Origin: an uncultured Candidatus Peribacteria bacterium
GTDB taxonomy: Bacteria; Patescibacteriota; Gracilibacteria; Absconditabacterales; Absconditicoccaceae
Assembly (NCBI GenBank): GCA_964435215.1
Contig: CAYSXV010000004.1
Location: 1 to 37,355 of the forward strand
Direction: 5' to 3'
DNA length: 37,355 bases
Shown: positions 6,518 through 28,356 of the stretch, piece by piece
Numbering within the stretch: position 1 is the first letter of the stretch
Layout of the letters: every line of letters starts with the position of its first letter
The notes under the pieces: model-generated
Databases searched by the model: none
What the model was told of the DNA's origin: nothing
The model's input: only the letters and a program-made list of their open reading frames with translations
Position numbers and translations under genes: made by a program

Positions 6518-7942
6518 CTATGCTTTTTTTTCTTTGAGTAGAGCAGCTGTGGCTGCGTTACAGAATTCTTCCGAATAGCGGTTACTTTCTATTTGTTTTA
6601 GTAAGGCTGATTGGGAAGCAAATGGACACATCTCAACAAGAATCCTTAGATGATGAACTTTGAGAAAGATTTCATCTATTGAGTTTTGTGAGAGTTTGGG
6701 AATAATAGATAACATTGTTTGATAGTCATCACCAATCTTATTGGCAATTGAGATCAAATTGTTTTGTTCTTCCAGATAGATAGATGCGGCTCTGCATAAC
6801 CCTTCCGGATATTTTTTTTGTTTGAGAATTTCCATGATCTCTACATCAGTTTTCTTTTCGAAATGTAGATATGGAAGTACTTTGGAGCAAAAACCATCAT
6901 CGTATTTTGCCTTTTCCATCAATTCCCAAAGTCCAGGTTCGTCTCTCTTTTTGAGATTGAGTTCTTTGATTGCGATTTTTAGTGCATCATTACTGAAAAA
7001 GTTTTTTCCCAGGACAAAGATAATATTGTCGTCATCCTTGAGAAATGGAATTGCCTTTGGGCAAATACCACTCATGTAGTGATGCTTTTCCAGTAGAGCT
7101 AAGATATCTTCATCCTTTTTACATATGGGGAAGAGAACTTCGCAGGTACTGAAATTATTTTGGCAGGTTTCAAATGCTAACCACATGTTAGCTTTTTGTT
7201 TTAAGGTTGGAACAACGATATTGGCAACGAATGGATGATAGTTTGACTTCTTCATAAGTGTCATCTTTGTTTTTTCATCCGTTATCATAGGAATTCCGTT
7301 GATACATGTTTTGAGATCAAACTTTGATCCTACGATTACTTCCATGATTTCTTTCTTTTTTTTGAGCCGGAGGACTCCGATTTCAGAAATATGATCACGA
7401 TAATTAAATCGTTGCATAACCTTGAGTGCGTTACTGGCAGATAAGTAGGGTATAAGTAAACGACAAATCGTCCAGTTGTAAACTGAATTTTGTACAAGTG
7501 CCCAGCGCCATGATTCTTTTTTTTCTGAGATTTTGAGCAGGGGAATGATAGCATCGCACATGTGAAATCCATACTTTGATTGTTCCATGATTTCTAACAA
7601 TTCCAGTTCTGTTTTGGTCTCCAGTCTGAAAAATGGAATCATATAATGGCAGACAATATCATCGTAACCGCTCTGTTTGATAAGAGCTATTAATTCTTTG
7701 TCTGTCTTGGCTGTGAGAGTGATCCGAGATAGCAACAAAGGTAATAAATCAGAGGAATGACTAGCTTTGGCAATAGGATATAATAAACCCTCAAAACTGT
7801 TTTGTTCCTTGAGTAATGAGATACCCAATCTACATACCTCCACTTCATACTTTGATTGCTCCATAATATTAAGAACTGTTTTTTCAGCGACCGTAATCTT
7901 CTGAGAAATACAAGCTCTAAAAAATCCTGATAAGTGTTTCAT
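6518..7942 (-). CDS. 474-aa alpha-helical repeat protein of unknown family. It is TGA-free and is the last gene of the RT cluster.
   Basis: Uninterrupted ORF with no TGA in 474 codons; all 14 Gly are GGN. About 12 degenerate repeats of roughly 38-42 aa share the pattern hhxhMxxSKYxxxxCxxhhPhLK (for example IMEQSKYEVEVCRLGISLLK, IMEQSKYGFHMCDAIIPLLK, LMEKAKYDDGFCSKVLPYLH). It looks GC-richer than its surroundings. AAGG lies 3 nt upstream of the ATG. Confidence 0.8.
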   Translation of the reverse strand: MKHLSGFFRACISQKITVAEKTVLNIMEQSKYEVEVCRLGISLLKEQNSFEGLLYPIAKASHSSDLLPLLLSRITLTAKTDKELIALIKQSGYDDIVCHYMIPFFRLETKTELELLEIMEQSKYGFHMCDAIIPLLKISEKKESWRWALVQNSVYNWTICRLLIPYLSASNALKVMQRFNYRDHISEIGVLRLKKKKEIMEVIVGSKFDLKTCINGIPMITDEKTKMTLMKKSNYHPFVANIVVPTLKQKANMWLAFETCQNNFSTCEVLFPICKKDEDILALLEKHHYMSGICPKAIPFLKDDDNIIFVLGKNFFSNDALKIAIKELNLKKRDEPGLWELMEKAKYDDGFCSKVLPYLHFEKKTDVEIMEILKQKKYPEGLCRAASIYLEEQNNLISIANKIGDDYQTMLSIIPKLSQNSIDEIFLKVHHLRILVEMCPFASQSALLKQIESNRYSEEFCNAATAALLKEKKA

Positions 7943-8052
7943 AGCCTTATTTGTTTTAGTTATTGATTGTGTTTTTATTATTGTTGGTTTTGTATTTTAT
8001 TAAGTATTACAATATAGATAAGAAAAATAATATCAAGAATAATGTTTTTTTA

Positions 8053-8331
8053 AAAAAATGCCCTGAATAAAAATCCAGGACATAAGTGGTATGGGCAAGT
8101 AAGGTTCCTGTCAGAAATGTAACCTTATTTATAAGGTTATAAATAAGACTGATTTTTATTGATATTCAACTGAATATCTTTTTCTGTCGGAACTTGTCGG
8201 AAATGTAAGGTTACATAAATATCACTTCCTCTTGTCCTAATCATAAATACCTCGTCTCGCAATATGCGGGGACTTTCAAAAGACAAAGCTTTAACCGGCA
8301 TTTAACGTGCAAAATACGCACGGCTTTTTTT
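8053..8331 (-). ncRNA. Structured RNA, paralog 0 of the RT-associated RNA family (diverged copy between the vWA gene and the 474-aa gene)
   Basis: It shares the 20-nt core GTCTCGCAATATGCGGGGAC (8254-8273, + strand notation) with the copies at 15237-15256 and 15559-15578. It also has the same closing stem, AAGTGG(TAT) at 8084-8092 against (ATAT)CACTT at 8219-8227. The two upstream hairpins are replaced by different sequences that still form hairpins (CGTGC..GCACG at 8307-8323; CTTT..AAAG). Confidence 0.55.
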
Positions 8332-10665
8332 TTATTTCTGTTTAAATATTTTTCATTGCATTGCGATAAAATAATCTCTTAACCTTTCTTTTCATTTAGT
8401 CATAATTTCTCAAGCATTATCCAAAAATAATTTCCATTCTGAAGTAAATATTTCAGAAAAATATTCTTTTTCAAAGTCTTGTAATCATAATCATACAAGG
8501 ATATCATTTCAATCAAATCTTTCAGCGACTTCTTTTAGTTCGTCTCAGTCTTTTCATTTATTTGGTTGGCCATCAGTAATAATAATAGGCATAAGTAATA
8601 TATCACGATTTTTTACAAAAAATTCATCTCATTTTTCGAGAATATCTTCTAATCATGATGCAATATCTGTCCTACTTTGTAAATTACTTAACATTCTACT
8701 TATTATTCATTTATTTGAATAATATTGGTCATCAAAAGATTTAATTGAAGTAACTTTTGCTCAAAATGTATTTATATAAAATGGTATTCATAATCTCTCA
8801 CAAAATAATGACATAAAGATTGCAAATGCTAATACTTCAAGAGCGACATCAGACATAGAACCACTAACGTCGATACTTAATGACATTCATAATTGTATAC
8901 GTACAGAATTTTCTTCATCTTCTCTACCATATACATCGTAATGTCACATTTTTATTTTTCTTCATGCTCAAATAATATTATATATTTTACCAGAAAAATA
9001 ATCACCATCTATAGTAATATCTTTTAATTTTGGAATATCATTCATAAGATCTTGTATAAACTCTTCTACTAATGGAGCTATTCTCTGTTCTATAACCTGA
9101 TATTTTTGATAATCATATTCTTGATCTTCAGAGAATCATTGTTCTTTCATCTCTTCTAAAAATCTTTTTCTTTTTTCCAAAAGCATTTTTTTTCTATTCT
9201 GTATCATTTCTTCAGCGGCTTTTCTATTTTTATTTGTCTTTATATTTCATGCTTTTCACTCTTGTTCTTCAAGTTTTTTCCAATCTTTATAATCAAAATC
9301 TTTTATAGTCGATGCAATATCATCAACAGCTTTTTTATCTTTATGAAATTGTTTGATCATATCTTCAATCCTTTTTTGTAGATTATCATCTGGGATTTCT
9401 GATCAAGGTTCTTTATCTTTTCAAGTAGGTTTTTTACTAGATGGAACAATATTTCATTCATCATCAGTATCCCAATCAAATTGAGGCATAGATTTTTTGA
9501 CTTCTTTGAGACCATCATTATCTATTTTTTTCTTTGCACGATCTATGTATGGTTGTTTCTCTTCAGGAGAATTATTTTTCCGCTCTTCATCAATTTTACG
9601 TTGAACTCATTTTTTTTCTATAGGTGTTAAATCTTTGTTGTTGGGCACGTCATCTAGAGAATCCAAAAGATCATCTAAAACTGAATTTCATCATGGTTGA
9701 GATGAATTGGATCATGGGTTGGGTTCAGATTTATTATTTTTTTTTCATTTTTTTGATTTTGATTGAATTAATTTTTTTAATTCTTCTAAATATTTCATAA
9801 GTTTTGCTTGATCATCAACATCTTTTTTAAGAATATCTTCAAGTATAGGCCAAAAGGTAATATTTTTTATTCATATTCTTTTATCGTTATCCATACTGAT
9901 ATCAGCAATCTGTTGTAGATATGGTTTAGCATTTTCTAAATGGATTTTCACTTCATCTGTAATATCTACTTTTACGTTATAATCATTTGGAAAATAATTA
10001 TTTAAATAATAATAAATAACAGCTATTTCAAATTGTTTGATTCTAGGTAGATGCTGAGCAGAAAGTACTCATGTAGAAAATGGTGCTTGTATGTGTCTAT
10101 AAAGCATCTTTATACCATTTTTTCTAACGGCATTTGTTTTTGCTCTCATAGAGTTGATGTAAAAATCTTCTACAACATTAAAAAACCTATGAATAGGAGA
10201 AGATGGAAGTTGTTTGTGATATGCTATCCTATTGCATCTTACAACGTCTTTGAAATCAGATGATAGTGCGTGTTGCATTTCATGTCATTGTACTTCACGC
10301 AATAATTGATCATCTAATTGTAACATCATAGAAAGACTATAGTAGAGATATTTGGGTTCAAAAAGCTCTTCAGGAATTTTTTTAATAGAATAATTTCAGT
10401 TCATATATCATGGAATATATTCATCGATCTCTTCTCCCAATCAACAAGCAAAAGTATCTCAGTCCTTTAATGGTCTAAGAGTAAGCTTTTTGGGGGATAT
10501 ACTGATGAGATATTCTAAATATTCCAACTTGTTTTCTACTAGAGTTTCCAATGCTTCATCAGAAATTTCATCTCAATCAAATAATTGTTTAGCTAAATAA
10601 GCATTGGACAAATTGGGCTCAGTATAATCCGCATATTGAAGTACATCAAATGTTTTGTTTTTCAT
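8332..10665 (-). CDS. HExxH metallopeptidase-like plus von Willebrand factor A (MIDAS) domain protein, 777 aa (resembles the DUF2201_N/DUF2201 partners of MoxR ATPases)
   Basis: The table-25 frame was checked codon by codon and has no TAA/TAG. HEMQH lies at 10270-10284. A charged Lys/Glu/Asp-rich linker follows. The C-terminal vWA domain has the MIDAS motif DVSGSMS (8851-8871) and IIITDGQPN. Its ATG (10663-10665) is 2 nt after the stop of the AAA gene. Confidence 0.8.
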
Positions 10666-10667
10666 TT

Positions 10668-13346
10668 TTATGTATTTGGAGTCTGATTAAAGAGTGTTTC
10701 TAATTTTAGATTTTTATTTGTTCAATAATTTTTTACTTCTTCAAGAACTGTTTCTCTTGATAGAGTTTTTAAATCATTTTTTATAGTTTCTCTATCAGAT
10801 AGAGAGGGGATAGAGTTTATATAAACTTCGATAAACGCCTTTTCAGGAGTATATCATAAACAAAGTAAATATAGCATTTTATTTAAATCTCTTTGTGAAA
10901 CAGAAGATGTTATCTTGCTTGATCTATCTATACCAGTCATTTTCTGGATATATTTACTGCGGAAATAATGAGCATACAAAAGTATTTCATTTATAGATTC
11001 GATTCATTTAATAAATTCTGGATTATAAGAAGATGTCTGTTTTTTATTTATAATATCATTCCATACCTGGATAAATTCTCTATCAGAAAGATATGAATCT
11101 TGCATCTTTGATATTTTTTCTTTTTGATCTTCACGTAATCAGTTACCATTGTGTTCTCTGATAATATAATATTTGATTTCATCAACATCACTTTGTGTGA
11201 ATCCTTCCTTAGATAATAATTTATAAAAATAAGGTACATTTTTGTATGTCATCAAAGCTTCATCATAGTTAACTATATTGTCTGTTATCAGGCTAGGATA
11301 GTCAATAAATTGAAAAAACGCTCTGCTAGAAATTTCAGCTGATAAAACATTGTTTCATTTATATACGTGTGTATTTGGATTCATTGTACCAAATATAAGC
11401 ACACTTTCTTTTGCTTTTTTTGAAGTATCACTATGAGGGAAATATAATTTTCTTCTCATATCCAATAGAGAATTTAATAATTTTGCTACTTCAGGACGTA
11501 GACTGTTAATCTCATCAAGAACCAATATAGCTCATTCAGTTTCAATAGCTTTTACTACTTCAGAATTTAATTTATATGTACCATTTTTATCTATAAGCCA
11601 TAGGTATGTCATATCATCTTTAGTGGTTTTTTCATTACAAGCAAAATTGAATACTGGTCTACCAGTATAATGAGCAAAAATATCTATTGCTACATTTTTA
11701 CCTACACCAGCTTCTCATTCTAAGATACCAAATCAATCTTGAGTAAGTAATTGATACTCAGATAGATGTACTATTTTATGTAATATCTCCATCACTGATG
11801 GAGGAATAACTATTTTAGAATTTAATTCTGGTGCTTTTTTGAGAGCAGAAAACAATCATGGCATAGCATTTATTTTTCTGATAACTCTAAAATAATGAGG
11901 AATATTTTTTTCTATTTCATCTCTTACTTCATGTAAACGCATCTGTAATTCTTGATATTCTGCAGATTTTTTATCTTCAAAGCGAATCAAAGAATCTGTT
12001 AATCTCACTTCTTCAGCAAATAATTCATTACATTCTTGGGTTTTATGAAATGTTGTATATTCTTTCATCATCTTTTTATATTCTTCTTCAGTCATCTTAT
12101 ATGGATTTTCTGGTCTGATTTTTTTCTCATCAGAAGCTTTGATAATTTTTCAGGATTTGATATCTTTTATATTTAGATGTACATTATCATCTACAATTTC
12201 AGGTTCTGCTTTCCATAAACTATTTGGTTTGTATAAGAATCTAGGAAAAACTGCTGATCCAAAATGGACTTCATCTCATCTAACTTTTATTTTAGGGAGA
12301 TTGATCTGTAGTGTAAGTAATTGTTCTTTTTTAAGATCTTCAAGTATTCAAATTAAATAAGTTTTTTTATCCTCAGATAAAAAATTTAATAAAGATTTCC
12401 ATTGTTTAATAATATCTTTTTGTCAGTAAGCTTCCAATTCTTCCTTGCTATGTAATGTTTCGATATCTTCACTGATTACTGTATTTACAAAAATTTCACA
12501 TAGAGTATATATCTCTTTGGTATATGAATCTTTGACATCATCACAAAGTTTTATAAAAAATTTAGCTTCTTCTTCATCTCAAGCAAGCTCTTCATTTTTT
12601 TTATATATAACATCATTCATCTCATCAATCAAAATAGCTATGGGGACAAAAATATCTTTGGTCTTTTGAGCATGACGTAGTTCTTGCACGATACTGTGTT
12701 TTTTTTCATATACCTGTTTGAAATGATCTTGAATATAAGCATTACTAATCAATTCATGAGCGTATGTATAAGATTGGTCATCTAAATATCATTGCTCCAT
12801 AAAATATTTCAATTCTTTTTCGATATTTTTGGAATATTGATAATCGAGAGAAACATTGGAACATATATTTGTTGTCCATTTTAAAAGATTTTGTTGGAAT
12901 AAAGAACTAATAGTATTGCGTAATTGAGTTTTAAGAAAATCTTCTGCTTCAGGATCTCATGTAGCAAAATCATAGGAAATAAGATCATTTATATCATCAC
13001 GTAAAGATTTTTTATTATTTAATAAACTATCATACATATTATTTTCGAGTGAATTTTGTAGTGATTTCCAAGTCTTAGCTTTGGCTTTTTTATGCTGATT
13101 TAGCATGATTTTGATTAATTGAGGAAAAATATCAGTAATCAATTTACTAATCATTTCTTTTTCTTCTTGTGGAATATTGTCACGTGAAAGTGAATCCAAA
13201 AGCTGTTTCTGGACTTCTACTATCATATGTACATCAGCAAAACGATATTCGCCGATATCAGTATTTGATTTAATCTGACTTAATATTTTTGATATACGTG
13301 CCATACTCATGTTGTTGTCTTTTAAGAAATTAAATATTACATTCAC
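10668..13346 (-). CDS. Large MoxR/AAA_5-type AAA+ ATPase, 892 aa, with an uncharacterised helical N-terminal region of about 470 aa
   Basis: The table-25 frame was checked and is continuous. Walker A is GEAGVGKN (11694-11717). Walker B plus the AAA_5-like segment reads AILVLDEINSLRPEVAKLLNSLLDMRRK (about 11455-11538), followed by ...VLIFGTMNP. The ATG at 13344-13346 overlaps the RT stop by 10 nt. Confidence 0.8.
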
Positions 13347-14926
13347 ATATCAGCACCATTTACAATAGAGTAAGAATAATAATTTTTCTTAGCATTTATT
13401 TTTGGGAAATGTTGTTGTTTAGCTGATCGATAATATTTTTCAAATTCATCTGCGACATGTCATTTTAATACTTCACTAGGTCTATTTTCTAATCATTGTC
13501 ATTTTACATCGGCTATGAAACTTCTTATACCATTCAGAGTGTCTGCAAGTAGTAGACCATCAACTTTACCTGTTTTAGGATCTTTGAATTTAATAGGTAA
13601 ATTACTTGGAGCAGTAGCTGCTGTCCTAGCAAATCAAATATATCTTGTCATTTTTTCTTGTGATATTCATAGTCTTCAATCATGACCTATCATGATACCA
13701 TTTACTTCTCTTGCTGTAGAAGCATTACGTCATCGAGATTTACTTTTACTATGCTTTATCTTCCATCAATTATGATTAACTATAGTCTGGATCTCTTGTT
13801 GTAAAAAATCCATTCAATCTGTTCATGGAGTCATATTTACAAATTTTAAGTATCTATCTATTTCTCATATTATGTTGTATCTAGTTTGTTCGAAAACTTC
13901 TATATTATTAAATTGATTATTTGCTGCGTAATCTAATATCTTTTGTTTAATTTTAAGTAACAATGCTCTTACTCTTCATCTGTTATATTCATCATCAAAT
14001 ATTACAGGACATTTTACAAGTTCATTGATATCATTTGATATAGATTGTATCTGAAAAACTGATTCTAAACCACTTTCAGCTTTGTTACTAAAAGTACTTT
14101 CAAGTTTATTATTTGTCTGTATAAGTTGTTGTTCTATATTTATATAATTTTTAAAATCTTTGAAACTGATTGCTATATCATCTATATATCTACTATACAA
14201 TGCATCACTTACAGGTGAAGCTTGGTTATATAAAAATTTTAATATATCCTGATCTGTCTTTGCAAATACAATATTTAATATGCGTGAACTTGTAGGTGCT
14301 CACTGTGGTAATTCATCATTTAATGTAATCAGAACTGTAAGATAAACAAAAAATATTTTCTTTTGTTCTTCATTGAGATAGGGGAATGATAGTTCTAGAT
14401 TTTTGGACATAGCTGTAGAAAGATTTTTATATACTCTATATGCATTTACACTTGGATAAGCATTTTTGATATCAGTAGTATATAAATATTTATTTGGTCT
14501 ATGTAATAATGCATTCTTTTTTGGGCTTGTTCATTTTTCACCACCGACAGTAGCTATAGAAACAGGTACATTTCTAAGAACGTCCAATAAATTCTCTTGA
14601 ATCTGTTTTAAAGGATCGGCAGGAGCGTTTATTGTTCTATATTCTTTTCAATCAGCTTTAAGGATTTTAAATTGAAAATATCATTGAGAAACTTCTTCCT
14701 CTCTGCTGCTGTTTTTTAAGGTAACGGTAGCGAGTGATTTTTCTTTAAGTTTCAATTTAATAACATCGATAAGTGTAGTTATGCTGCAACCACAAAAGTG
14801 AGATAAGGCCTTTAAAATTTCCTTGTCTAGATTGTCTACTGACTTTCTCAGGATATCTTTTTGTTCTTCCAAAAAGTGTTGGTTCTTATCCAAAATTTCT
14901 GCATCTTTATTTTCGGGTGTATGCAT
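13337..14926 (-). CDS. Retron-type reverse transcriptase, 529 aa
   Basis: Manual table-25 translation shows YRTINAPADPLKQIQENLL (motif 1), SPKKNALLH (retron NAxxH region, 14501-14515), YLYTTDIKNAYPSV (motif 2), LPQGAPTSSRILN (motif 4), and YSRYIDDIAISF (YxDD, 14177-14188). REVNGIMIG sits at the position of the retron VTG motif. Stop is TAA at 13337-13339. Confidence 0.9.
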
Positions 14927-14958
14927 GGTTATATTAAATATATATAAATTTATATAAT

Positions 14959-14986
14959 CTTATAATTATTTACTAGTAAATGTCAA
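14959..14986 (-). promoter_or_regulatory. Promoter of the RT operon (TTGACA-N16-TATAAG), copy 1 of a triplicated promoter module
   Basis: On the minus strand, TTGACA is at 14986-14981 and TATAAG at 14964-14959. The block TATAATTATTTACTAGTAAATGTCAATA recurs at 15311-15338 and 15633-15660. Confidence 0.65.
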
Positions 14987-15011
14987 TACGAAGGACTAGA
15001 AAATTTAGAAC

Positions 15012-15303
15012 AAAAAAAGCCCCTGAATGGGGCAAGTGGTACAATGCTTGAGATAGGTCAACGGCAAATAAAGAGCAAATATAGAGCAAATTAAGAGCAA
15101 ATGAGGAGCAAGGAAATGTAGATATAACAAGGGTTATAGTGCTATCTGGAGATTTCTCTAGAGATTTCTCTAGATAGTTATCCGGAGTTATCTGAGTAAT
15201 ATTTCATTTCCACTTTATCTCAATCATCAATGTCTTGTCTCGCAATATGCGGGGACTTCAACAGGAAAGATCCTGTAACGACTAAGAAGGCGTAAGCCTC
15301 GGG
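15012..15303 (-). ncRNA. RT-associated structured RNA, paralog 1 (msr/msd-like candidate), with its own promoter and terminator
   Basis: A promoter sits at 15309-15336. The 5' scaffold of about 110 nt has three hairpins: GAGGC-UUAC-GCCUU, CAGG-AUCUUU-CCUG, and GUC..CGCA-UAU-UGCG..GAC. The closing stem AAGUGG/CCACUU (15211-15216 / 15034-15039) encloses an insert of about 170 nt. The terminator is GCCCC-loop-GGGGC (15019-15033) plus U7. Confidence 0.7.
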
Positions 15304-15308
15304 GACAA

Positions 15309-15336
15309 TATATAATTATTTACTATTAAATGTCAA
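15309..15336 (-). promoter_or_regulatory. Promoter of RNA paralog 1 (TTGACA-N16-TATATA)
   Basis: On the minus strand, TTGACA is at 15336-15331 and TATATA at 15314-15309. It lies immediately downstream of the paralog-2 terminator. Confidence 0.65.
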
Positions 15337-15343
15337 TAGAAGT

Positions 15344-15624
15344 AAAAAAAGAAAAAGCCCCTAAATGGGGCGAGTGGAAGCATGATTTAATAATGTGGTT
15401 TGTGGTGTTCCTTAGTTAGGAATTGAGTTAGGATTTTAGTACGTTGGTATTGAACGTTGCGAAATGTTGTTTCGCATTGCGAATATCAGTTTTCCCTAGT
15501 TATCCGTGGTTATCCCGATAGAATTACCTTTCCACTTTATCATAATCATCAATGTCTTGTCTCGCAATATGCGGGGACTCCAACAGGAAAGATCCTGTAA
15601 CGACTATGAAGGCATAAGCCTCGA
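15344..15624 (-). ncRNA. RT-associated structured RNA, paralog 2, with its own promoter and terminator
   Basis: Its scaffold and promoter are about 135 nt near-identical to paralog 1 (15527-15660 against 15196-15338). The insert (15380-15530) is completely different. The closing stem is AGUGGAA/UUCCACU. The terminator is GCCCC-loop-GGGGC (15357-15371) plus a U-run. Confidence 0.7.
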
Positions 15625-15630
15625 GGGCAA

Positions 15631-15658
15631 TATATAATTATTTACTAGTAAATGTCAA
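15631..15658 (-). promoter_or_regulatory. Promoter of RNA paralog 2 (TTGACA-N16-TATATA)
   Basis: On the minus strand, TTGACA is at 15658-15653 and TATATA at 15636-15631, about 12 nt after the helicase stop codon. Confidence 0.65.
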
Positions 15659-15669
15659 TAGTTAGATTT

Positions 15670-17052
15670 TTATGTCATATTTTCTTGAATAAATTTTTTG
15701 ATTGCTGGATGGAAAAACAGATGTCTCCTTTCTATCTTAGTTAATAATTTAATACCAGCTAAAGTCCTTGATCTGCTAAGTGCTGTATATGCTTGTCATC
15801 AAGTAAAGATACCATAAAGATCTAGTGTACAAGCATCGAAAGTCATTCACTGTGATTTATGGATAGTGATAGAGTAGGCGAGTTTCAATGGTAGCTGTGA
15901 ATAGGTTCATAAGATATCTTCTTGGACTGCTCATTTATCAGTAATAGTAACTTCTTTGTTATATCGAGTTTCTGGTAAGATAGAAATAGTTTCGTTTCAT
16001 ATTTCGACATCAACGAAGTCTTCTCATAGACCTTGTACAAATCACATAGATCAATTGATCCATCTACCTGACATATCGTTGGTAATCATCATGACCTTTG
16101 CTCATTTTTTTAATCTGAGTATATCATCAGCCTTTTTCATACCGTCTGGAAATTTTCATTCAGTTTCTCAATGATAGAGATATTCTTTTCATGATAGTTC
16201 AAATAATTTTTTATTATTTACTGTATCTACTTTGTTTCTATGAGTAGATAATAAAATCACATCTGAATCTGCTTCTCATAGTTGTTTATTTAATACAGAG
16301 AGATGAAAATCTGATATATCTTCATTTCTTATAGCATCTAGAATATCTCAGAAAAATTGATCATGTTCTTGTCTATAATTTTTTTTCAATTCTATGATAT
16401 CATATGGCAGTTTATTTTTAAATGTAATAGAATCAAAAAACCATTCGCTCTCATAATGATTTGCAAATTTATCTTTCCAATCTTGATTACTTACAGGTGG
16501 TAGTTGAAAAACATCTCAAACGAAAATAACTGGCTTACCTCAGAAAGGTTTCCTGGCTAGGCTAGAATCTCAGGTTTCTTTTGCGATATTATATGACATC
16601 AAAAAATTAATACAGTCTATAGTACTAGAGTTCAACATGCTGATTTCATCTATGATAACAAATGGCACATTCATAAGTGTTTTAACTTTTTTCTTTTTGA
16701 GTTTATATTGTCTATTTTTTTTATCTTTTAAATAATGTTGAATATCTTTGAAATATACATTCTCGATTCATAAAGAAAAAAAAGAATGAACAGTCTGTCA
16801 TCATATATTGAGTGCTGAGATACCTGTAGATCAGAGTGCTAGAGGTGGCTTGGATATACCTGTACAAAATTCTATCACATCTTTGATAAGAGTAGATTTT
16901 CCTGTACCTGCTTTACCAGTCAAGAATATACAATTATCTGTAGTATTTAGTTGATTTAGAAATGACAATGCATCAGGATTATCTTTTCGTTTATTTAGAA
17001 TTTTTTTGTATCTAGTTTTTACATCAGAGGATAAGTTATCAATATTTAGCAT
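15670..17052 (-). CDS. PIF1/RecD-like superfamily-1 DNA helicase, 460 aa
   Basis: The table-25 frame was checked and has no stops. Motifs: Walker A LTGKAGTGKST, GSTGISALNIGGQTVHSFF, Walker B VIIDEISM, VGDVFQLPPV, and C-terminal AYSITIHKSQGMTFD. Confidence 0.85.
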
Positions 17053-17521: not shown

Positions 17522-18283
17522 TTATTTTACCTCAATCAATCGTTCATTTGTTCTCATGAATGGAATAGTCCGAGGATCATTGTATTGATTTAAAATAGCT
17601 ACAGTATCTGTTGTAATATTTTGTTCTTTTAGTGCTTTTTGGAATATACTAAGTTGTTTATTTGCTCTGGACTCTTGCGCATATCGTGAAAATTTCCATA
17701 CATAATATTTTTTTGCTGGAAGTTCAACAAAAGTGATATTAGGATTGTTTGGTTTAGGTAAAGTTTCTATAGTATATTTGCTTGGCATAGTAAACGTAAT
17801 AAGATAACTATCGCCTTCTTTTTGTGTCCCCACAGGAGCAGTCATAGCAATAGTGCTATTTGTCTTTGTTACTCATACAGGAGCCGTCATGGCAATAGTG
17901 CTATTTGTCTTTGTTACTCATACAGGAGCCGTCATGGCAATAGTACTATTTGTTTTTGTTACTCATACAGGAGCAGTCATGGCAATTGTACTATTTGTTT
18001 TTGTAGTACCTACTGGAGCCGTCATAGCAACTGATGTCTTATTTGTATTTCATCAGAATATATATCACGCTAATTGACGGAATCAATCATTAAGAGCTTT
18101 ATTTTGTGAGCCTGTTACTGATACAACTGCTTGTATCATAGGTCCAATTTCACGCACTTCTATATTCCCAGTTATCATTGTGCTAGAAATAATTTTTGGT
18201 TTTTCGATGCTTCTTGTGCTAAAATATGACCAAGATACTCGTATCACTAATACGATAAATATAATTATAAGAACTATTTTCAT
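17522..18283 (-). CDS. SOUL haem-binding-family protein with an N-terminal signal/anchor and an internal 15-aa tandem repeat
   Basis: The sequence reads ...EKPKIISSTMITGNIEVREIGPMIQAVV...GFRQLAGYIFGGNTNK..., then five copies of (I)AMTAPVG.TKTNST, then ...YLITFTMPSKY...YNDPRTIPFMRTNERLIEV. A single table-25 frame links track ORFs 18083-18283 and 17522-17845. Confidence 0.8.
17832..18045. repeat. 45-bp tandem repeat, about 4.7 copies, in frame within the SOUL gene
   Basis: Units start at 17832, 17877, 17922, 17967 and 18012 (ACAGGAGC[AC]GTCATGGCAATAGTGCTATTTGTCTTTGTTACTCAT). There are only a few substitutions between units. Confidence 0.9.
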
Positions 18284-18450: not shown

Positions 18451-18780
18451 TTAAAAACAGGGGATGATAACCCTTTCATGCTCTGATAGATCGACAATAG
18501 CAACTAGAATCAGATGATCATTATCACTGAAGAATTCTGATGAGAATTTTTGTCCATCTACAAATTCAATGATATTGATATCTTGTTTTTGATCTTTCCT
18601 TTTTATCTTCAACTTAAGTGGAAGGGATTTTTTTTCTATTGATCCTTTACCGAAGTGTTTGAAATAAAAAGCTTGCCATGAAGGATAGTCTGTTGGTTGA
18701 TAGTGAGTAAACTCACTTGCAAATCGGAATTCTCCTTCTACACCTATGAGCGAATAAATATTAGCGCCTTTTAGTATCAT
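18451..18780 (-). CDS. Hypothetical protein, 109 aa (TGA-free)
   Basis: Intact ORF ending at TAA. All its Gly are GGN. A hairpin plus T-run on the minus strand lies just downstream (about 18410-18440). Confidence 0.5.
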   Translation of the reverse strand: MILKGANIYSLIGVEGEFRFASEFTHYQPTDYPSWQAFYFKHFGKGSIEKKSLPLKLKIKRKDQKQDINIIEFVDGQKFSSEFFSDNDHLILVAIVDLSEHERVIIPCF

Positions 18781-18974: not shown

Positions 18975-21900
18975 ATGAAAAAATTAATATCTATAATTAT
19001 TTTTATTATGTCCATCTGTTCTTTCAGTGTATATGCAGCACAATTGACATGGGATGCCGTATCTAATGGAGTGACAATAGATGATGGTGTATGAACATGG
19101 AAGGTCTGATTCTTGACTTTTAATGATGGAGCTACAAGCGTTGCGTGGGCTACTGGTAGCGATGCAATAATTGGAAACTGATGAATAGGTTGAGTGATAA
19201 CCGTATCTGGTACCGTTATTCCAAACTCTATCTTATTTTTACCAGTATCTTCAAATTATACATTAAGTGGTGGTATAATTAATTTAACTAATACAAATAC
19301 TATTATAACAACTAGCTGATCAACATCGCCAATAATAAATTCTGTATTATCATGAACAGGTTGATTAACTAAAACGTGATCATGAACACTGACTTTGGGT
19401 GGTACGAATACATATACATGAAACACTACAATTAGTGAAGGAAAAATTATAGCAAACAATATTTATGCATTTGGTTTAACAGGAAATATTTCTGTATCTT
19501 CATGAGCTATACTTGATATTTCATGACTTAATTATTCTGGACAAGATAATATTTTTAGTCGTACAACTGTAGCTACTGGTGGTAGCATAATTTCATCTAT
19601 CCAAACTATAAAATATGATTTTGAATCTGATACATCATGAGTAAGACCAGCAGATATACTTATTGATTATAGATGAGACATGAAAGTTGGATCGATTACT
19701 GGATTAAATTGAAAATGAGCAACGATTTCTTCATCAGGTAGTGCTTGGCCACCAATAATTCCAATTACGTTAACAAAGTTTCCTGCTTCTACAGATTATT
19801 CTGTGATTTGGTTACAATCAAGTGCAAACACAGGATATAAAAATGGAATAACTCTCCGTGCTCAAGCTACAACAGGGACTCATGCAAATTCATGAGTAAG
19901 ACAATGATATCTTTTCCAGGTATCAAATTATAATAACCAATTAATGTTTGCGTTAGTTTGAAGTACATGATATAATATTACAATTAAGGCTGTTACTGGA
20001 GCACTTCCAAATGTTCCTCGTCGATATAAAGCTACAGTAATATGAAATACACAAACTTTTTCATATTCAGATGTTTCTAATAAGTGACCATGGATAGTGG
20101 CTATACAAAAGACATTTTCTAATTATGCTTCATGATATACACAATATACTGATGGATGGAATTATCAGACTTTAAATCTAGCATATATTGATGATGTTAC
20201 TATGCAATATGTTAATTCAACTACTATAGTACCAGATAGACCCAATGCTCCAAGTTTAGTAGAAATGTGATCTACATCAACAACTCTTTGATTTTCTGGA
20301 TATATATTATCTGGGGTGACTCAGTATACTATTACAGCTAACCCAGGAGCTATAACTGCTACAGGAGCAGGTAGTCCATTGACTGTATCTGGACTTTCTC
20401 CATCTACAACATATGCATTTACTTTATCAGCTCAAAATTCAGCAGGATCATCTATGGATTCAATTCCATATACAGGAACAACATCAGCATGAACAACTGC
20501 AACAATAACTTATAGTACAACATGAGCAACAAGTTGAAATGTAATCGCAACTTTAACATGATTAAGTGGAGCAACTATAACAAATAATGGTTGAAGTGAT
20601 GTATATACATTTACATGAAATTGAACTTTTACATTTACATATAGTCAGTGAGCAACTACTGGTAGTGCAGTAGCAACAGTAAATCGAATTGATAAAACCT
20701 CTCCAACTGCAACGATAAGTTACAATCCGACATGAGCAACAAATGGAAATGTGATTGTAACATTGACGTGATTTAGTGAATCAATTACAATTACAAATAA
20801 TGGATGAAGTTCTGGTTACACATTTGTAGGTAACTGAAGTTTTACATTTAATTTCAAAGATGCAGTAGGAAATACATGAAGTACTACGGCTGTAGTAACT
20901 TGGATAAATAATCCTGGGTCATTAACGATTACAAGTCCTGTTCAATATCAAGTAATTCAACGTGATAAAGTTACTAATAAATGATCTATACAGATTGTCG
21001 GTACTTATACTTGATCTGTTTCAGGTATTGAAGCAAGTCGGAATAATGGATGATTTGTAAATATATCAGCAGCTATGAATTGATGAGTATTTACTGGTAC
21101 TCTTACAAATCAAACAGGTGGTCAATGAACACTTATCATACGTTCAACAACTAATACAGAAGATGTAGCAAGCGTATCTATGATATGAGTTTGAGATATT
21201 TTTATTGTAGCATGACAAAGTAACGCTGCTTGATGGGGTTCAAGACCTCAGTTATTTACTGGATCTAATGGTATTACAGCTAGTTTATTTGGTAATGATT
21301 ATAACTGGAAAGCATTAACAGATCCATATGATATTAATACTAATCAAGTAGATGCGGTCAGTCTTGATTCATATACAAATGGATCATTTGTTCCGCTTTT
21401 AGCAACTAAAATTGTCGCTAGTCAGAATATCCCAGTCGCATTTGTACCTACTGCAATGTGATGAACCAATATCAGTGTATGGACTCCATGAGCAAATCAT
21501 TTTGATAGAACTACTCTTTATGGTTCTATGGCATATAGGATTGCTCAAGTATGATGAAAAATAGCTGGAGTACTTTTTTTCCAATGAGAATCTGATGTGA
21601 TGATGAAAAGATCAACAGCATCTTATCAAACAGCATTAAATACAATCGTAAATACTTTACAATCAGATTTTGCAGCTTCATGAACTATTAAATGGTTTGT
21701 ATGATCTATCGGTTCAAATAATTATTCTGGATATGCTATAGATGCAATACGTAAAGCACAACAAGAAATATATTTAACAAATTCATATGTATATTCTACA
21801 AACGCATTAACATACGATATCAATATAGCTGATGAATGAGATGCTAATCTTCATTTTAGATCTGATGGTGATCTAGCTGCTTTTTCAGAAAGACGATGGA

Positions 21901-27483: not shown

Positions 27484-28356
27484 TTATCGTTTTCATCAGC
27501 CACCTCCTCCACCGAAACCTCATCATCAAAATCATCAGAAACTATTTCATCATCAACCACCAAAACCTCATCCTCCTATTATTCATCATCATGCTCATCC
27601 GTTTCATCATTTACCAAATATTCATAATAGCATACCTATATATCATACTATCATATATAGTATTATACTTCAAGCCATTACTCATATTATGATTCATATA
27701 GCGCTTATTATTAATATTGCAAGTGCCCATTTCTTCTTGTTTTTCCTTTTTGCTTTTGGAACAATTCAACGACTTATAGATGATGCCATAAAGAATAAAA
27801 AGATCATCCAAAATAAATTAAACTTACCTATATTTGCTGTTGTATTATTGTTTGCTGAAGAATAAGTCTCAACAACTGTAGGATCTTTCTGTATATATAA
27901 ATTGATATCATTTATAGCTGCATATATTCATTGGAAATAATTTCAATCTCTAAAGTTTGGAACTATATTATTTTCTCAAATTCTTTTTGCTATTGCATCT
28001 GGTATGGTTCATTCCAATCAATATCAGACTTGTATAGATCGCGATCTATCTTCCATAGCAAATAGCATTATGATTCAATTATCTTTTCATTTTTCTCATA
28101 CTCACCATTTGGTTCATATCTCTGAAGCTAGTAAATTAGCATCATCTCAATCTATAGTAGGTACTATGAGAACTGCTATCTGTGCACTTGTTGTCTGTTG
28201 TATATTTGATATCAAATCAGAGATTTGAGTTTTTTGATCTAGTGTTAAAGTATTTGCTAAATCATTAACAAATCAATTTGGACTTGGTATTTCAAATCAT
28301 AGAGTAAAAGAAAATAATGTAGTTAACAATAGGAAAGTTGAAATTTTTTTGATCAT
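27484..28356 (-). CDS. TPM-domain (YgcG-like) membrane protein with a poly-Gly C-terminal tail, 290 aa
   Basis: It has a signal peptide. The TPM core reads FVNDLANTL...AQIAVLIVPTIDGDD...GVGEKGKDNGIIMLFAMEDRSRSIQVGYGLEG. TM segments follow. The tail is GKGGNGGAGGGIIGGGGFGGGGGNSFGGFGGGGFGGGGGGKR, encoded largely by runs of TGA (27490-27620). Confidence 0.85.

Follow-up and report, generated by a model that had tools for sequence, protein, structure and literature searches.

What does a retron-like reverse transcriptase (RT) do when its gene is bracketed by small structured RNAs and followed by genes for a MoxR-type ATPase and a zincin-like protein with a vWA domain? The question is raised by a minus-strand locus in contig CAYSXV010000004.1 (assembly GCA_964435215.1) of an uncultured Candidatus Peribacteria bacterium, of which a stretch of 37,355 nucleotides (the window) was analysed. 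We favour, with moderate confidence, the answer that this is an RT-non-coding RNA (ncRNA)-effector system of the kind formed by retrons and defence-associated RTs (DRTs), native to a lineage with genetic code 25 (TGA=Gly), in which the RNAs would be templates for complementary DNA (cDNA) and the RT-RNA-cDNA complex would act through the ATPase and vWA pair. The elements, in the direction of transcription, are as follows.

15629-15658 (minus strand): promoter of ncRNA-1, with TTGACA, an 18-nt spacer that holds the palindrome TTTACTAGTAAA, and TATATT; 11/12 matches, the best in the region
15347-15627 (minus strand): ncRNA-1 (scaffold 15626-15521, terminator 15371-15357); covariance model 106 bits, E=5e-23
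15307-15336 (minus strand): promoter of ncRNA-2; 11/12 matches
15012-15304 (minus strand): ncRNA-2 (scaffold 15304-15199, terminator 15033-15019); covariance model 102 bits
14957-14986 (minus strand): promoter of the RT operon, TTGACA-TTTACTAGTAAA-TAATTATA, common to the RNA promoters
13337-14926 (minus strand): retron-like RT, 529 aa, 17 TGA=Gly codons; RVT_1, 1.3e-11
10668-13310 (minus strand): AAA_5 ATPase of the MoxR/CbbQ/CobS type; AAA_5, 7.4e-23, residues 541-675
8332-10665 (minus strand): 777-aa protein with 36 TGA=Gly codons, a zincin-like N-terminal part, a K/E-rich linker and a CobT-like vWA C-terminal part
8052-8327 (minus strand): ncRNA-3, a divergent paralogue at the 3' end of the operon (scaffold 8321-8217, terminator 8083-8058); covariance model 86 bits, E=6e-18

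The reverse transcriptase and its genetic code

When TGA is treated as a sense codon, four minus-strand open reading frames (ORFs) are recovered exactly as a first-pass annotation of the sequence had listed them, at 6518-7942, 8332-10665, 10668-13346 and 13337-14926 (474, 777, 892 and 529 aa, respectively); under table 11, the region falls into short ORFs. TGA occupies the conserved Gly of the RT motif LPQ-G-APTS, and TGA positions in the window correspond to GGN Gly codons in homologues, as in YNR(TGA)R versus YNRGR. The share of TGA among the Gly codons is 59-82% in the RT, ATPase and vWA genes and 53-82% in the neighbouring genes, where housekeeping genes such as those of DnaB and a DEAD-box helicase are likewise TGA-rich at Gly. 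Because TGA aligns with Gly and supplies most Gly codons, as in the housekeeping neighbours, the RT operon is, judged by its codons, written in code 25, and its three genes are native to the recoded lineage, in agreement with the initial proposal. Public protein database entries for these genes have TGA translated as Trp.

The RT contains the retron signatures first reported for it, NALLH, LPQGAPTS, YIDD and VNG, and these are kept across the family alignment. N138 and H142 of NALLH are invariant in the 12-member RT family, and the V/I-N/T-G motif retains its G, for which the codon is GGN or TGA. The hallmarks of retron RTs are NAXXH in region X and a VTG triplet in region Y (Mestre 2020, PMC7736814). 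The 25 best-scoring PADLOC models all represent retron RTs, and the top one, RT_VI (5.5e-35, 119 bits), matches over residues 79-271 only (fingers and palm). The NCBIfam models for the retron St85, TIR and Ec67 RTs also match, all far under their cut-offs (retron_St85_RT reaches 125.9 bits against a cut-off of 235), so that a comparison with known retron classes in PADLOC and NCBIfam places the RT below every family cut-off. The 12 PDB matches are, without exception, retron RTs or unnamed RNA-directed DNA polymerases. Compared with retron RTs, the protein is ~200 aa longer (529 versus ~320 aa), with ~110 helical residues inserted between palm and thumb and a C-terminal extension. Its motifs identify the RT as catalytically intact and retron-like, while its place among retrons in the strict sense is unproven, given that the RNAs depart in layout from the canonical a1-msr-msd-a2.

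It is scarcely credible that the locus is a diversity-generating retroelement (DGR) or a fragment of a group II intron. Some MoxR-vWA systems, including those with VMAP, are associated with DGR RTs that diversify FGS-domain effectors (PMC7159879), which gives this alternative its appeal. However, an A-tolerant 30-mer search of the window for DGR-like copies of the RNAs gave 0 matches outside the RNA loci, so that there is no template repeat/variable repeat pair; the RT motif is QGxPTS rather than the DGR type; the best RT matches are retron RTs; and the group II RT model reaches only E=0.0065. Rfam yields no intron RNA or any other match at gathering thresholds across the whole window, and a relaxed search of the RNA regions gives two chance-level matches. 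Both origins were therefore rejected, and the original view of the RT as retron-like is borne out by the PADLOC, NCBIfam and PDB matches.

The RT family is tiny. A search of 5.8 billion proteins recovers 12 full-length members, a scan of genome collections finds 2, both known before, and a scan of metagenomes adds one (locus L020), for a total of ~13. No close relatives of the RT were found in phage and viral collections. The sole relative with a taxonomic label lies on a contig of Candidatus Absconditabacterales.

The structured RNAs and their duplications

The claim of three cognate structured RNAs is upheld by a covariance model, all copies of which adjoin RT operons. The three RNAs of the window share the 21-mer AGTCCCCGCATATTGCGAGAC (3 occurrences versus 0 expected by chance) and have folding z-scores of -4.7 (ncRNA-1), -2.7 (ncRNA-2) and -4.2 (ncRNA-3). 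The three best promoter-like sites within 6-16 kb lie at 15658, 15336 and 14986: ncRNA-1 and ncRNA-2 are each bounded by a near-consensus promoter and a GC-rich terminator, and the same promoter precedes the RT. ncRNA-3, which follows the vWA stop immediately and carries an 11-bp terminator, lacks a strong promoter for itself. A perfect 12-bp palindrome, TTTACTAGTAAA, is located in the promoter spacers of ncRNA-1 (15641-15652) and of the RT (14969-14980), and a variant of it, TTTAATAGTAAA, in the ncRNA-2 promoter (~15319-15330). The palindrome is kept in the related loci L001, L015 and L010, and is likely to be the operator of a putative repressor that co-regulates the RNAs and the RT.

Alignment of 14 scaffolds from seven loci, whose RTs are down to 34-42% identical, gives a three-way junction as the consensus, made up of an outer helix and two hairpins, one of them GUC...GAC, with compensatory changes at 9 of the 14 scaffold base pairs. 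In 207 kb of fetched loci, the covariance model retrieves 20 copies (E<=6e-11), each of them immediately before an RT or immediately after a vWA gene; five are in L015, a locus left out of model building. There are 3-5 paralogous ncRNA genes per locus, and the copies bracket the three protein genes, with two copies each downstream of the vWA gene in L001 and L015.

The RNAs of L004 and L006, the most divergent ones, lay beyond the reach of the model. Nevertheless, a promoter, a scaffold-like region, repeats and a terminator are found directly before the RT in L002, L003, L004, L006, L008, L011 and L020, and a related RNA lies just upstream of the RT in every clade member with readable upstream sequence. 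Since the RNA recurs before distant RTs, the RT-RNA partnership is the conserved core of the family. L020 is a GC-rich, apparently non-recoded relative (RT 30% identical) that has a promoter and a scaffold-like GUCC...GCGACAAAGA at 1340-1730 upstream of the RT, together with a 13-nt direct repeat, CAGTGGCGCTGTA, in two copies at period 19, and with a 3' motif, GGATGCAAGGGGAGGAGG; this indicates that the RNA family reaches beyond code-25 lineages. A coding role of the RNAs was ruled out: a 72-codon ORF in ncRNA-2 is not kept in the orthologue, where it stops after 17 codons, which argues that the RNAs are non-coding, and no conserved small ORF was found within them.

The variable part of the RNAs is marked by short duplications. 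Across 18 RNAs, 36 exact 6-mer direct repeats occur at period 10, versus 1.3 in shuffles; other periods yield 13 (period 11) and 9-12 each (periods 20, 21 and 22). The density of period-10 repeats is 6.5/kb in the ncRNAs versus 0.41/kb in the remaining window, a 16-fold difference. In the MoxR group, whose 16 RNAs come from the window, L001, L015 and L010, the variable region of each RNA opens with an A-B-A' unit, in which A is 7-9 nt, B is 1-3 nt and the period is exactly 10. The unit lies at a fixed offset, 64-73 nt after AGUC and just 3' of a short hairpin. It is the strongest repeat in 15 of the 16, and the RNA W_2 has GATAACT-ccg-GATAACT at the same offset. Seven A sequences occur (GGATAAC, GGGAAAACT, GATAACT(A), CAGATAACT, ACTAACTA, TTCCGACA and TGTCGAAA), and A always equals A' despite these variants, which indicates that the two copies change together.

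In the window, the units are GGATAAC-cac-GGATAAC in ncRNA-1 (15515-15499), GATAACT-ccg-GATAACT in ncRNA-2 (15192-15176) and TTCCGACA-ag-TTCCGACA in ncRNA-3 (8202-8185). A helix encloses the hypervariable region, in which further period-10/11 duplications and short palindromes follow the first A-B-A'. ncRNA-2, for example, contains TCTAGAGAAATC twice and, within four period-11 TTTGC units, three exact copies of TTTGCTCT. The distant loci have serial pairs in an AABBCC layout, as in L008 with two copies each of ACTAACTGT, AGTTATCC and AGTTTTCCC. The idea that the repeats are DnaA boxes was dropped, as the reverse complement of GGATAACnnnGGATAAC is TTATCC(G/A)nn and has only TTATCC in common with TTATCCACA.

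These duplications could serve a protein instead of the RT. The RNAs, or the DNA that encodes them, might be regulators or decoys whose duplicated 7-9-mers and palindromes bind a dimeric or tandem protein, for example of the TrmB type, with the RT binding only the scaffold. A period of 10-11 corresponds to one helical turn, related motifs are found in either orientation from one locus to another, short perfect palindromes are present among the repeats and a palindromic operator-like element in the promoters, and a TrmB helix-turn-helix (HTH) gene adjoins in four distant loci. We nevertheless hold this explanation to be unlikely, because the repeats sit within promoter-terminator transcription units and are fused to a covarying scaffold, the RT-associated ncRNAs of retrons, DRT2, DRT9, DRT10 and UG27 are all templates, and the repeat motifs were not found in pairs elsewhere in the window.

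The enclosing helix also invites comparison with a canonical retron, in which GUGGAA/UUCCAC would be a1/a2, the adjacent G would prime through its 2'-OH, a single copy of the variable region, made as msDNA (multicopy single-stranded DNA), would be the antitoxin of the effector, and the duplications would be structural features of msd. The hallmarks of the RT agree with this arrangement, as do the position of the helix around the variable region, the G that usually follows its 5' strand, and the distant-clade ncRNAs, each of which, like those of retrons, continues into the RT gene with no separate promoter. Four features make it improbable: the scaffold lies outside the helix, on its 5' side, whereas a retron would place it between a1 and msd; the G is variable and is missing in the RNA L001_e and in one L015 copy; the variable region has no long msd-type hairpin; and the helix shows little covariation.

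Partner proteins and genomic setting

The ATPase has intact Walker A (GEAGVGKN) and Walker B (LVLDE) motifs and, with its AAA_5 match (7e-23), retains its assignment to the MoxR type. Its N-terminal ~530 aa has no domain match, and PADLOC gives no convincing match to the protein (one weak GajB at E=1e-4). The length is 880 aa from ATG 13310 or 892 aa from GTG 13346. The first-pass annotation described an ATG that overlaps the RT stop and took the overlap to imply translational coupling. The overlapping codon (13346) is, however, a GTG, and the homologues as well as the database gene call start at ATG 13310, 26 nt past the RT stop TAA. By these gene calls, the true start is probably ATG 13310, and both the overlap and the coupling drawn from it are doubtful. 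The other junction is real: the vWA ATG lies 2 nt past the ATPase stop, as described, and this spacing is kept in L001.

Both motifs recognised at the outset in the 777-aa protein are present: HEMQH, which is followed by an ED pair, and the metal ion-dependent adhesion site (MIDAS), with the sequence DVSGSM. Pfam gives no match above threshold; VWA matches the C-terminal part weakly (E=0.0011, under the cut-off), and no PADLOC family matches the protein. An exhaustive phmmer search recovers 61 remote homologues, many of them full-length (750-900 aa), several of which match VWA (3.8e-7), VWA_2 or CobT_C. In their alignment, H128, E129, H132, N163, E166, D167 and DxSGSM are conserved. The initial description as an HExxH-vWA protein thus stands. 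For DUF2201 there is no profile match, as neither half matches Pfam DUF2201_N/DUF2201 even at E<=10; the resemblance to DUF2201 proteins is in architecture only, with HExxH at the N-terminal and vWA at the C-terminal side. No VMAP component was recognised at the locus, without a search by VMAP profiles, and a VMAP-like region may be present in the ATPase N-terminus. Besides the ATPase-vWA pair, there is no third conserved gene.

Word searches with the ATPase and vWA proteins return near-identical relatives only (84-98% identical), and those looked up (in the window, L001, L015 and L016) all adjoin this RT. On the suggested check of gene order, RT-AAA-vWA recurs in L001, L015 and L016, and L010 shows RT-AAA up to the end of its contig, which with the window makes five loci. 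L001 and L015 share synteny with the window on both flanks, while the neighbours of L010 differ, which suggests that the RT module is able to relocate as a unit.

Could the ATPase and the vWA protein be a housekeeping chaperone pair, like CbbQ/CbbO, NorQ/NorD or CobS/CobT, that merely lies downstream of a two-part element of RT and ncRNAs? MoxR-vWA pairs form a module that is sufficient in itself, the C-terminal domain here is CobT-like, the pair is missing beside the more distant RT homologues, and housekeeping genes lie all around. These points fall short of making the idea probable, and we rate it as rather improbable, since the only homologues from the word search adjoin this RT where looked up, the ncRNA copies bracket all three genes (before the RT and after the vWA gene), L010 keeps ncRNAs-RT-AAA among other neighbours, and the zincin motif HExxH...ED, conserved in the vWA protein, is unusual for a chaperone adaptor.

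In other branches of the RT clade, the partners are different: either TrmB with a methyltransferase-fusion protein or other HExxH proteins. A TrmB-type HTH gene lies upstream in four distant loci (L002, 2949-6035; L003, 7421-9594; L008, 1344-4963; L011, 1827-4839). Its companion in L003, L008 and L011 is a 476-949-aa protein with an N-terminal Methyltransf_33 (EgtD-like) domain, and the 780-aa companion in L002 has no Pfam match. The pair of TrmB and Methyltransf_33-fusion protein may take the partner role for the same RT-RNA core, as an alternative module. L004 encodes, directly downstream of the RT, a 316-aa protein with HEIGH (11510-12460), and L006, in the same position, a 1536-aa protein with HELVH (10591-15201), so that three branches of the clade have an HExxH partner. 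Such a change of partners around a constant RT-RNA core is typical of retron and DRT systems.

Two further minus-strand genes border the system.

15670-17052 (minus strand): PIF1 helicase gene, upstream of the RNA/RT cluster
6518-7942 (minus strand): 474-aa all-helical repeat protein, outside the system; not in the syntenic L001 and L015

The third RNA and the 474-aa protein had been thought to complete the cluster. The RNA does belong to it, by its covariance match of 86 bits; the protein does not, and was ruled out as a component by its absence from L001 and L015 and by the lack of TGA at any of its 14 Gly codons (0/14, versus 53-82% in the neighbours). It consists of ~38-aa units with the motif MEQSKY..C, and a single-sequence AlphaFold2 model shows helical repeats only (predicted local distance difference test score, pLDDT, 61). 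The gene (GC content 35% versus ~28%) is probably a recent insertion and seems, from its codons, to have been acquired from a standard-code organism or element.

The locus is chromosomal and not a phage. Its neighbours, all of an ordinary chromosomal kind, encode DsbB, DUF2177, SOUL, a nucleotidyl transferase, DnaB and a DEAD-box helicase; no tRNAs were found in the window. The SOUL heme-binding family protein (17522-18283, minus strand; E=9e-36) carries ~5 tandem 15-aa units, TNSTIAMTAPVG[TV]TK, inserted inside the domain. A 290-aa protein (27484-28356, minus strand) has a long Gly-rich C-terminal tail, GGNGGAGGG...GGGGGGGKR, and its gene contains 37 TGA codons over its whole length. The 109-aa ORF at 18451-18780 (minus strand), of which a homologue is present in L001, has TGA at 0 of 6 Gly codons, possibly by chance in a short gene. 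In L015, a JGI relative, an OLD-like TOPRIM/AAA_21 gene and an HTH_17 gene (19729-21648) lie ~7 kb from the RT operon, the sole hint of a defence-gene neighbourhood among all loci.

Proposed mechanism, known systems and significance

In the mechanism that we propose, the scaffold would be the handle for the RT and the variable region the template for cDNA. In DRT10, an A-B-A' template 3' of a stem lets the cDNA realign, which yields tandem-repeat cDNA (PMC12632851). The A-B-A' units described here may likewise allow the nascent cDNA to realign and thus be extended into 10-nt tandem-repeat DNA, as in DRT10 and telomerase, with concatemers of the (GTTATCCGTG)n type as the predicted product; alternatively, the units may be read once to give an msDNA-like product. 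The RT-RNA-cDNA complex would control, or be sensed by, the MoxR-type ATPase and vWA pair, which may gate the HExxH protease in an abortive-infection-type response to phage. Control of the effectors is proposed because of the analogy with retrons and with MoxR-vWA thresholding systems (PMC7159879).

Several observations speak against this mechanism. Similar 7-8-mers occur in both orientations across loci (GGATAACT / AGTTATCC and GGAAAACT / AGTTTTCC), which simple templating does not predict and which points to duplex-DNA recognition or a protein-binding site. One RNA can hold several different A-B-A' units in series, which is not seen in DRT10, and A is 7-9 nt here, much longer than in DRT10. 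The conserved scaffold 5' of the closing helix and the lack of an invariant branching G are non-canonical for a retron. The AlphaFold2 model of the RT is poor (pLDDT 63) and gives no structural support for the assignment; the structure models were made from database versions in which TGA is read as Trp. The MoxR-vWA linkage is confined to a sub-branch with RT identities of 73-88%, that is, to close relatives, so its conservation is shallow, and the neighbourhood consists of chromosomal housekeeping genes without a defence island.

A more specific version of the proposed mechanism is offered as a tentative possibility, less probable than its general form. A retron-clade RT may have independently taken up repeat addition like that of telomerase and DRT10, with interchangeable ncRNA cassettes that each program a different 10-nt repeat DNA. 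The cassettes would have one scaffold and one promoter/operator in common. The repeat DNA would be a platform or bait, with one unit per helical turn and similar motifs usable in either orientation, that is read by a MoxR-vWA switch which releases the zincin protease.

Compared with retrons (types I-XIII, PMC7736814), the locus is alike in NAxxH, QGxPTS, YxDD and V/I-x-G, in the contiguous upstream ncRNA and in branch-specific co-encoded effector genes. It differs in the RT, which is under every curated threshold and bears the insertion and extension described above; in having 3-5 ncRNA genes per locus, of which the upstream ones each have their own promoter and terminator; and in the RNA, where the scaffold is 5' of the closing helix and the variable region consists of period-10 duplications rather than an msd hairpin. 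No described type has an effector pair of MoxR-type ATPase and zincin-vWA protein. RT_VI is the best PADLOC retron model, and type VI retrons (ncRNA-SP-HTH-RT; Zhang et al. 2025 preprint, 10.1101/2025.10.22.683967) are also alike in the HTH (TrmB) gene near sister loci and in conserved short direct repeats in the RNA. In contrast to these, the gene order here is another, the RNA has no conserved small ORF and TrmB is paired with a Methyltransf_33 fusion.

DRT10 (UG17 RT, SLATT and ncRNA; Tang et al. 2025 preprint, PMC12632851) has in common with the locus the A-B-A' just 3' of a stem, the co-variation of A and A' under drift and a repeat unit of similar size (9 nt there, 10 nt here). The RT there is UG17 and here retron-like, and A is 2-4 nt there and 7-9 nt here; here there are several different A-B-A' units per RNA and several RNAs per locus, and we only infer tandem-repeat cDNA. 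No neighbouring product matched SLATT in Pfam scans or precomputed annotations.

UG27 (RT, sORF, bORF and ncRNA arrays; bioRxiv 10.64898/2026.09.22.753630) likewise combines one RT with several ncRNA units, which are conserved in structure, diverse in sequence, and gained or lost between close relatives. It is phage-borne and common in gut phages, with a YSDD motif, ncRNA units of ~150 nt and accessory proteins unlike those here, whereas the present RT has no close phage relative. Its motif AUCN7UANAG is absent from all 18 RNAs examined; with no close phage relatives either, membership in UG27 was ruled out.

The MoxR-vWA(-VMAP) conflict systems (Kaur, Burroughs, Iyer, Aravind 2020, PMC7159879), CbbQ/CbbO and CobS/CobT are alike in that an AAA_5/MoxR ATPase immediately precedes a large protein whose C-terminal vWA domain has a MIDAS. 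They differ in that the RT here is retron-like with ncRNAs and not a DGR RT, the vWA protein has an N-terminal zincin-like domain and the ATPase a ~530-aa unmatched N-terminal part.

Full-text literature searches found no paper that couples a retron or DRT to MoxR, AAA_5 or vWA. The early claim of novelty thus stands for the MoxR-vWA effector, while its other half, several ncRNAs for one RT, is no longer an argument because the UG27 preprint provides a precedent. Three elements are new here, namely an RT clade, an RNA family and an effector pair.

Bacterial RTs make functional DNA from small RNAs in very different ways, as retrons, DRT2/9/10 and UG27 show. Here, a retron-related RT is found with RNAs that bear the A-B-A' signature, until now associated with repeat addition of the telomerase type, and the locus would be a fourth route to templated DNA and a test of whether such repeat addition arose more than once. 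What limits its importance is that the family is rare, the effector link shallowly conserved and the mechanism a proposed one. Several independently transcribed RNAs with one common RT handle would be swappable cassettes, and a compact scaffold with a programmable template region could serve for DNA production in cells. The pair of MoxR-type ATPase and vWA-metalloprotease had no earlier link to any retron or DRT. Elaborate RT systems thus persist in the reduced, recoded genomes of candidate phyla and, if the repeat-addition reading is true, the locus would represent a new sensing and effector logic for RT-based immunity in ultra-small recoded bacteria.

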